Of a stretch of 64,000 nucleotides of DNA, positions 26,458 through 27,073 are shown one piece after another; positions within the stretch are counted from its first letter, which is position 1, and each line of letters begins with the position of its first letter. The DNA is from a virus: the UHGV virus genome UHGV-1483955. The stretch is one strand, 5' to 3'. A program made the position numbers and the translations under genes. Below the pieces are notes generated by a model. The model worked only from the letters and a program-made list of their open reading frames with translations, was not told the DNA's origin and did not search any database.

Positions 26458-26709
26458 TTAGTTACCGCTGATAGCGCGGTTGTAATCATTAACGTTGCGA
26501 TTCTTCCTGTTAATCCCCATCAGCATCGTTTCTGTATCGAGGATATACGCTGGCAGATCATCAAAATATTCACTGCTAAACTCTGGCATCCTGCACATAA
26601 ATGCACTTTTGGGGGCAGGGTGGTTAACCTTTGTCGGCGTCGGCGTTAAATTCGCTGATCGACTGCCGGAGCAACCGCTGAGTATCAGCAGGAATGCGCT
26701 GGCGAACAT
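26458..26709 (-). CDS. o-spanin-like outer-membrane lipoprotein (start uncertain)
   Basis: Frame overlapping the 3' end of the upstream gene; RRVMFASAFLLILSGC lipobox followed by Pro-rich TPTPTKVNHPAP. Confidence 0.4.
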   Translation of the reverse strand: MFASAFLLILSGCSGSRSANLTPTPTKVNHPAPKSAFMCRMPEFSSEYFDDLPAYILDTETMLMGINRKNRNVNDYNRAISGN

Positions 26710-27073
26710 TACCCGCCGCAACCAGTTGTTTCTGAACTTCAGCTTTTCGTTCCATTTGCCTGTCAGCATATTTGGCTTGTTCTGATTCATTTTTCACTTC
26801 CTGGCTGTGAAAATGTTGCTCTGCTTTGTTCATCGTCTCAATGGTCTGGTTAAGATCCATTATTGACTTATCACGTTCCTTAACAGCCTGATCAAGACTG
26901 CCAATTTTCTCCATGGCTTGCTTTAGCTGATGACGTTCCCATGCAAACCCAGCACCAACAAGTGCGCAAATCAGAACAAGAACACCAGTAGCAGCAAGTT
27001 TCTCCTTCAAAGACAAAGCTGTTTTTAATGTAGAAAAGAATGACATGTCTTCCTCCTGAAGAAAAATTATCAA
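26624..27073 (-). CDS. i-spanin-like protein (N-terminal TM segment plus coiled coil)
   Basis: MSFFSTLKTALSLKEKLAATGVLVLICALVGAGFAW then charged heptad-rich region; overlapped by lipoprotein frame. Confidence 0.4.
   Translation of the reverse strand: MIIFLQEEDMSFFSTLKTALSLKEKLAATGVLVLICALVGAGFAWERHQLKQAMEKIGSLDQAVKERDKSIMDLNQTIETMNKAEQHFHSQEVKNESEQAKYADRQMERKAEVQKQLVAAGNVRQRIPADTQRLLRQSISEFNADADKG

Follow-up and report, generated by a model that had tools for sequence, protein, structure and literature searches.

Phage P1 has a predicted pair of spanin genes, ppfA and mlp, which overlap partly and share an operon without linkage to lyz or lydA/B (Bednarek et al. 2022, PMC9025707). They were recognised from predicted features, for which that paper cites Summer et al. 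2007; it swaps the o- and i-spanin labels of the two genes, mlp being the one that encodes the lipoprotein. In the P1 genome (NC_005856), ppfA and mlp are P1_gp064 and P1_gp063, respectively. Their names stand for 'possible periplasmic function' and 'membrane lipoprotein precursor', and the RefSeq product name of mlp is 'Rz-like spanin'. In a genome-wide CRISPRi study, both genes were non-essential for plaquing, with EOP values of 1.2-1.3 for ppfA and 0.19-0.24 for mlp (PMC10695390). ppfA, mlp, RCS47 and SJ46 are all absent from the main text of Kongari 2018.

Two further systems serve for comparison. In phage P2, lysB and lysC encode proteins of 141 and 96 residues, overlap by 146 nt in the +1 frame, and directly follow holin Y, endolysin K and lysA in a Y-K-lysA-lysB-lysC cassette. 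In phage lambda, Rz and Rz1 are the last genes of the S-R-Rz cassette, and Rz1 is fully embedded. The periplasmic part of Rz carries two Cys, and Rz1 has a conserved periplasmic Cys and is 24% Pro, with a penta-Pro stretch.

Identity of the locus and relation to P2 LysB/LysC

The window, a 64,000-nt stretch of the virus genome UHGV-1483955, carries on its minus strand an overlapping pair of genes for a 140-residue type II helical protein and a 110-residue lipoprotein in the +1 frame, which confirms the overlapping pair of the original prediction. Positions 26000-28200 were 97-99% identical in nucleotide sequence to P1, P7, SJ46, RCS47 and other Punavirus phages (97% over 2.2 kb for P1), and positions 22000-29000 were 99.9% identical to the E. 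coli plasmid NZ_CP065205.1. These plasmid and P1 identities place the window within a P1-like phage-plasmid, where it extends from the constant part of the tail-fibre gene S and gene R to an ORF at the position of c1 (62494..63345). The gene order upfC-upfB-ppfA-mlp-upfA-oriR is common to the window, P1, P7, SJ46 and RCS47, and upfC-upfB-ppfA-mlp-upfA also occurs in Cronobacter phage JK004, a Salmonella Newport plasmid and an IMG/VR contig (L090). PpfA is encoded by a further 631 plasmid records, mostly from Escherichia and Salmonella.

At the protein level, the products were 98.6% (PpfA) and 97.3% (Mlp) identical to those of P1. The P1 and P7 genes are orthologues of the window pair, with the same gene order and the same 167-nt overlap; P1 differs by a few substitutions, such as the lipobox context LTLSGC where the window has LILSGC. 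The adjacent plasmid replicon is different from that of P1 and P7, being RepB-type in the window. We are confident in assigning the pair as ppfA/mlp, the predicted two-component spanin of a P1-like plasmid prophage of E. coli. This agrees with the i-spanin/o-spanin reading given in the original prediction and with the naming of P1 ppfA/mlp as predicted spanins in RefSeq and PMC9025707. The pair is real, ordinary for its phage family, and already known as a prediction. Its value as a discovery is small: that P1 has this pair, that the genes overlap and that they stand apart from lyz and lydA/B is textbook knowledge already labelled in RefSeq. The locus does provide a calibration case, in that a reader without tools rightly recognised a spanin pair from topology signals alone.

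Profile and pairwise comparisons indicate that the closest characterised relatives of the pair are P2 LysB/LysC and not lambda Rz/Rz1. PpfA matched phrog_89 ('Rz-like spanin', 1.1e-25), the family to which P2 LysB belongs (5.8e-61). Mlp matched phrog_30284 at 1.2e-76 and phrog_456 at 3e-5; P2 LysC belongs to phrog_456 (1.7e-31) and cross-matched phrog_30284 at 5.4e-4. The two phages thus have PHROG families in common for both proteins, whereas lambda Rz and Rz1 are assigned to phrog_13 and phrog_3198. In BLASTP, Mlp and P2 LysC were similar with E = 2e-7 (34% over 65 residues), the alignment spanning the lipobox, a TPTP motif and Cys-x-M-P. The P2 proteins are also similar in size to PpfA and Mlp, and the P2 genes likewise overlap in the +1 frame.

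For PpfA, the pairwise comparisons were negative. Neither BLASTP nor hhalign detected significant similarity to P2 LysB, the score against the NCBIfam LysB model (TIGR03495) was 19.5 bits, far under the cut-off of 92.75, and BLASTP against lambda Rz was not significant (E = 0.37). A Pfam scan of the pair returned no Rz or Rz1 match at E ≤ 1 and just sub-threshold coiled-coil noise. On the PHROG and LysC matches, PpfA and Mlp appear to be remote relatives of P2 LysB/LysC, and we see the P1 pair most readily as a predicted spanin of LysB/LysC type that has diverged and no longer sits with the other genes of its cassette.

Searches for additional relatives returned mainly P1-like loci. Aligning PpfA against viral contigs recovered near-identical P1-like loci only, and a search for homologous proteins recovered P1-like proteins only, at identities of at least 59%. 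Three more distant relatives of full length came from a profile search over 1.84 billion representatives: P0078, from a further P1-like genome with the same layout, and P0084 and P0095, whose loci were not found in phage, viral, genome or metagenome collections. Among the relatives recovered, no member of the close family lay within a canonical lysis cassette, and the link to such a cassette is through P2 LysB/LysC only.

Gene structure and predicted protein features

The features of the locus are listed in Table 1. The original prediction had placed the pair at 26458-27073. The i-spanin ORF was confirmed, but its start was not: 27073 is the TTG of the longest ORF in the ppfA frame (26624..27073, 149 aa). 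We consider the ATG at 27046 to be the likelier start because AGGAGG lies 5 nt upstream of it and because it agrees with the P1 annotation of ppfA. The mlp gene starts 256 nt past the ppfA ATG in the +1 frame and ends 166 nt past the ppfA stop codon, the overlapped architecture among the two-component spanins of Summer 2007 and Kongari 2018; ahead of its ATG stands the SD-like AGGAAG. Since Met28 is not conserved in the relatives, we took the upstream ATG (26790) as the mlp start.

Table 1. Features of the ppfA/mlp locus and its immediate neighbourhood, in the direction of transcription (positions in the window).
Feature	Coordinates	Strand	Basis or remark
Second candidate late promoter, ACAAATAACCTAAGTTAAAAT	28200..28220	-	33 nt upstream of upfC; PWM rank 7
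upfC, PAAR-type; first of five-gene same-strand run	27883..28167	-	Pfam PAAR_motif 1.1e-5, phrog_281
upfB; first gene upstream, same orientation	27086..27931	-	P1 synteny, phrog_1559
Candidate Lpa-type late promoter, ACAAAGGACTTCATTGATAAT	27066..27086	-	-22 box, 4 nt, -10 GATAAT; PWM rank 11
ppfA Shine-Dalgarno AGGAGG	27052..27057	-	seen directly in sequence
ppfA, predicted i-spanin, 140 aa	26624..27046	-	ORF, SD, P1 match, PHROG, topology
PpfA predicted layout			cytoplasmic N-terminus aa 1-16, TMD aa 17-35, helical periplasmic domain aa 36-140
PpfA transmembrane codons, aa 17-35 (LAATGVLVLICALVGAGFA)	26942..26998	-	Kyte-Doolittle, 19-aa window
mlp, predicted o-spanin precursor, 110 aa	26458..26790	-	ORF, P1 match, PHROG, P2 LysC
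Mlp predicted layout			39-aa signal peptide with long basic n-region, lipobox LSGC, 71-aa mature lipoprotein
mlp lipobox codons L37-S38-G39-C40	26671..26682	-	regex and hydrophobicity scan
Dual-coding ppfA/mlp overlap, 167 nt	26624..26790	-	ppfA aa 86-140 / mlp aa 1-56
upfA; last gene of run	26054..26446	-	P1 synteny, phrog_1453
Terminator-like hairpin after upfA	26042..26026	-	terminator scan

PpfA is predicted to be an N-in/C-out, type II membrane protein with one N-terminal TMD. Its single hydrophobic segment had a Kyte-Doolittle maximum of 2.35 and was the sole cluster of averaging windows above 1.6; the N-terminal tail preceding it has a net charge of +2. The C-terminal domain of 105 residues is 34% charged and contains no Cys. 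A single-sequence AF2 model (mean pLDDT 81) consisted of a helix from residue 4 to 116, a break at R-I-P, and a second helix from residue 120 to 138. The original prediction had described the protein as a coiled coil. Heptads were clear at residues 46-73, where 7 of the 8 a/d positions are hydrophobic, a pattern matched by 1.4% of shuffles, and weaker elsewhere.

In Mlp, the lipobox L-S-G-C is preceded by a basic n-region and the hydrophobic stretch MFASAFLLI, and the mature protein is predicted to begin with Cys40 in lipidated form. Outer-membrane sorting would be expected because the mature N-terminus, C-S-G-S, has Ser and no Asp at position +2. The AF2 model comprised the signal helix and a low-confidence C-terminal helix joined by a disordered linker. 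The mature protein contains 6 Pro in its 71 residues, 4 of these within the first 25. Thus, the lipobox of the originally predicted Pro-rich lipoprotein was found at Cys40, but the protein is only modestly Pro-rich, at 8.5% versus 24% in lambda Rz1. One further Cys of the mature protein, Cys27 (FMCRMPEF), is invariant in all relatives compared. At least one periplasmic Cys available for intermolecular disulfide bonds is present in 507 of 528 known spanin systems (PMC6139136); in ppfA/mlp it is supplied by Mlp Cys27 alone, the periplasmic part of PpfA having none.

In predicted topology, the pair resembles lambda Rz/Rz1: both consist of a type II helical inner-membrane protein and a small outer-membrane lipoprotein in the +1 frame, and in both the lipoprotein has a conserved periplasmic Cys. 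The differences are that mlp is overlapped and not embedded, that Mlp is poorer in Pro, and that PpfA lacks the two periplasmic Cys of Rz.

A separate observation concerns the n-region of Mlp (26710-26790, minus strand). It is unusually long and basic, comprises 27 residues, and is encoded wholly within ppfA. The internal Met28 that follows is substituted in several relatives, and the long form is seemingly the conserved one.

Coding status of mlp and role of the pair

The reading of the locus as a spanin pair depends on translation of the second frame. An untranslated mlp frame, open by chance over and beyond ppfA and leaving ppfA as the sole gene, would accord with the frequent omission of mlp from automatic annotations, or the calling of just a 43-46-aa downstream fragment, and with the length of the 27-residue n-region. 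Several results make this exceedingly improbable. P1, SJ46, and E. albertii and E. fergusonii plasmids keep both frames open and retain the lipobox and the second Cys (FMC-x-MP). The same is true of JK004 and the Salmonella Newport plasmid, in which the proteins are 60-65% identical and the DNA 60-78% identical, and of contig L090, whose i-spanin is only 35% identical. Across all of these relatives, the lipobox reads LTLSGC, LTLSAC or LTLNGC. Compared with the relatives of about 60% protein identity, DNA identity was 77-78% in the overlap versus 61% in the part of ppfA that codes for PpfA only. Moreover, in the 166 nt that belong to mlp only, 29 of 51 and 30 of 45 substitutions with respect to these relatives fell at mlp codon position 3. 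Because substitutions downstream of the ppfA stop codon concentrate at this position, the mlp frame is under selection. The SD-like sequence ahead of the mlp ATG and the significant similarity of Mlp to P2 LysC also argue against a chance frame, and a lipoprotein signal occurred in only 2 of the 172 ATG-initiated ORFs of at least 60 codons in the six frames of the window. An untranslated lipoprotein frame had been named as evidence against the original prediction; as far as sequence can tell, the codon-position-3 bias and the open frame in the relatives speak for translation.

Even if both frames are translated, PpfA and Mlp might conceivably act in the cell envelope in some way that does not involve disrupting the outer membrane at lysis. 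They might, for example, regulate lysis timing, as in the original annotations of P2 lysB/lysC and P1 mlp, act in superinfection exclusion or as a prophage-expressed lipoprotein, or assist UpfC/UpfB. Consistent with such a role, the genes lie beside tail-tip genes and a plasmid replicon and away from the lysis genes, the P1 annotators predicted sigma-70 promoters, the knock-downs had no plating defect or one of just 4-5-fold (PMC10695390), and the spanin activity of the pair is so far a prediction (PMC9025707). However, the pair has the full i-/o-spanin signature of a type II helical protein and a +1-frame outer-membrane lipoprotein with a conserved Cys, and it is homologous to P2 LysB/LysC, which sit in a canonical lysis cassette. 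In addition, the proteomic and cryo-EM studies of the P1 virion (PMC9024508, PMC12810830) mention neither protein as a virion component, and spanin defects are masked under standard plating or shaking (PMC9025707). On balance, we consider a different envelope role unlikely.

Taking PpfA and Mlp as a two-component spanin, we use lambda Rz/Rz1 and P2 LysB/LysC as models to infer where the two proteins would be located, how they would form a complex and disrupt membranes, and when. PpfA would span the inner membrane, with a cytoplasmic N-terminus and with its long helical domain reaching into the periplasm. After export, Mlp would be lipidated at Cys40, lose its signal peptide to signal peptidase II and take its place in the inner leaflet of the outer membrane. 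PpfA and Mlp would contact each other across the periplasm via their C-terminal parts, passing through the meshes of the peptidoglycan. Removal of the peptidoglycan by the SAR endolysin Lyz, triggered by the holins, would free the PpfA-Mlp complexes, which would bring the membranes together and destroy the outer membrane as the last step of lysis. Late transcription that depends on Lpa may co-ordinate ppfA/mlp with the other lysis genes; a candidate for such a promoter is located before ppfA. That the spanin role of PpfA/Mlp is still a prediction, with knock-downs that are nearly silent, gives the locus a modest residual value, as does the frequency with which the o-spanin is overlooked or cut short when P1-like plasmids are annotated automatically.

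The annotation gap was seen in many public P1-like records, in which the o-spanin is represented only by a C-terminal fragment of 43-52 aa downstream of ppfA, labelled 'hypothetical protein'. Examples are L002 (3460-3591), L005 (4458-4592), L006 (3431-3589), L007 (1949-2089), L008 (1958-2089) and L009 (1949-2089).

Genomic context, late-promoter candidates and other regions of the window

The original prediction had noted that no holin or endolysin is recognisable next to the pair and had proposed either a split lysis cassette or one located outside the window. Indeed, tblastn using the five P7 lysis proteins Lyz, LydA, LydB, LydC and LydD returned no match in the window. Both proposals hold: in P1 and P7, lyz-lydD, lydC and lydA-lydB are separate loci, apart from one another, and in the most similar complete plasmid, the spanin pair is separated by about 43 kb from the lysozyme gene and by about 34 kb from the lydA/lydC holin genes; gaps of tens of kilobases are normal in this phage family. 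This distance sets the P1-type pair apart from P2 lysB/lysC. The immediate neighbours of the pair are of a different kind. UpfC corresponds to the PAAR spike tip, on which the virion protein UpfB is reported to form a trimeric 'tripod' at the P1 tail tip (PMC9024508; cryo-EM, PMC12810830). As virion components, UpfC and UpfB are therefore presumably late proteins.

Late promoters were evaluated using a position weight matrix (PWM) built from 7 annotated P1/P7 Lpa-type late promoters, with 127,960 positions of the window scored. Ranks 1-6 were the strong late-promoter sites of the window. Four of these six coincide with LP23, LPs, LPsit and LPpac as annotated in P1/P7; the other two (41936 and 40231, minus strand) are without annotation in P7. 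The candidate nearest to ppfA extends from the upfB stop codon to 19 nt short of the ppfA ATG. Its motif is invariant in P1-like loci, and in JK004, the Salmonella Newport plasmid and L090, the top PWM site of the locus lies at the same position before the i-spanin gene; its score is well under those of proven late promoters. For the candidate nearest to upfC, the box, the spacer and the -10 element align in four diverged relatives. A strict regular expression for the late-promoter box gave no match near the pair, and the candidates were found later by the PWM and the alignment of diverged relatives. Neither is present in the P1 and P7 GenBank annotations, which hold only predicted sigma-70 promoters here. 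Our own sigma-70 scan yielded fewer matches than shuffled sequences and was uninformative.

Judged from motif and conservation, the chances are evenly balanced that the spanin pair has its own Lpa-dependent late promoter, with a second, weaker one before upfC. The late-promoter-like motifs before the two genes are a new side observation, unannotated in P1 and P7, and are put forward as a prediction only. If the prediction is correct, a single Lpa regulon would unite lyz-lydD, lydA-lydB and ppfA-mlp, the spanin genes answering to the activator that also serves LPlyz and LPdar, and such a regulon would explain how the phage can afford a dispersed lysis cassette. The modest residual value of the locus also lies here, in that the conserved motif before ppfA would simply account for the co-ordination of dispersed lysis genes.

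Several other regions of the window differ from P1 or P7. Positions 23664-25925 contain a plasmid replicon without nucleotide homology to P1/P7. It includes an ORF for a 294-aa initiator (24835..25719), the corresponding gene of near-identical plasmids being labelled a RepB-family initiator, and a 269-aa ORF (23733..24542) between parA and the initiator gene. A GIY-YIG nuclease is also annotated in this region of near-identical plasmids. Homology to P1 resumes at 25926, inside oriR and just downstream of the spanin run.

The region at 33259-34354 contains the only other lipobox ORF of the window (33509..34336, plus strand). It was evaluated as a second spanin candidate and rejected: the 275-aa lipoprotein has an SPFH/band-7 (HflK/C-like) domain and Asp at position +2 (CDRVE), which would lead to inner-membrane retention. 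The gene stands where P1 has tciA-tciB-tciC (TerB-like). The ORFs at the position of P1 plp/upl are not protein-like here.

A large variable stretch at 47975-56797 has short patches of P1/P7 homology only; it corresponds to the poorly characterised upf/pmg accessory region before humD-phd-doc. At the start of the window, positions 1-608 had no blastn match to the P7 tail-fibre gene S, whereas the rest of S and R did match. This segment lies approximately at the boundary between the variable, host-range-determining part and the constant part of S; the cixR boundary of P7 is at 39360-39361, and homology resumes at P7 position 39975. The S alleles of the window and P7 probably differ.
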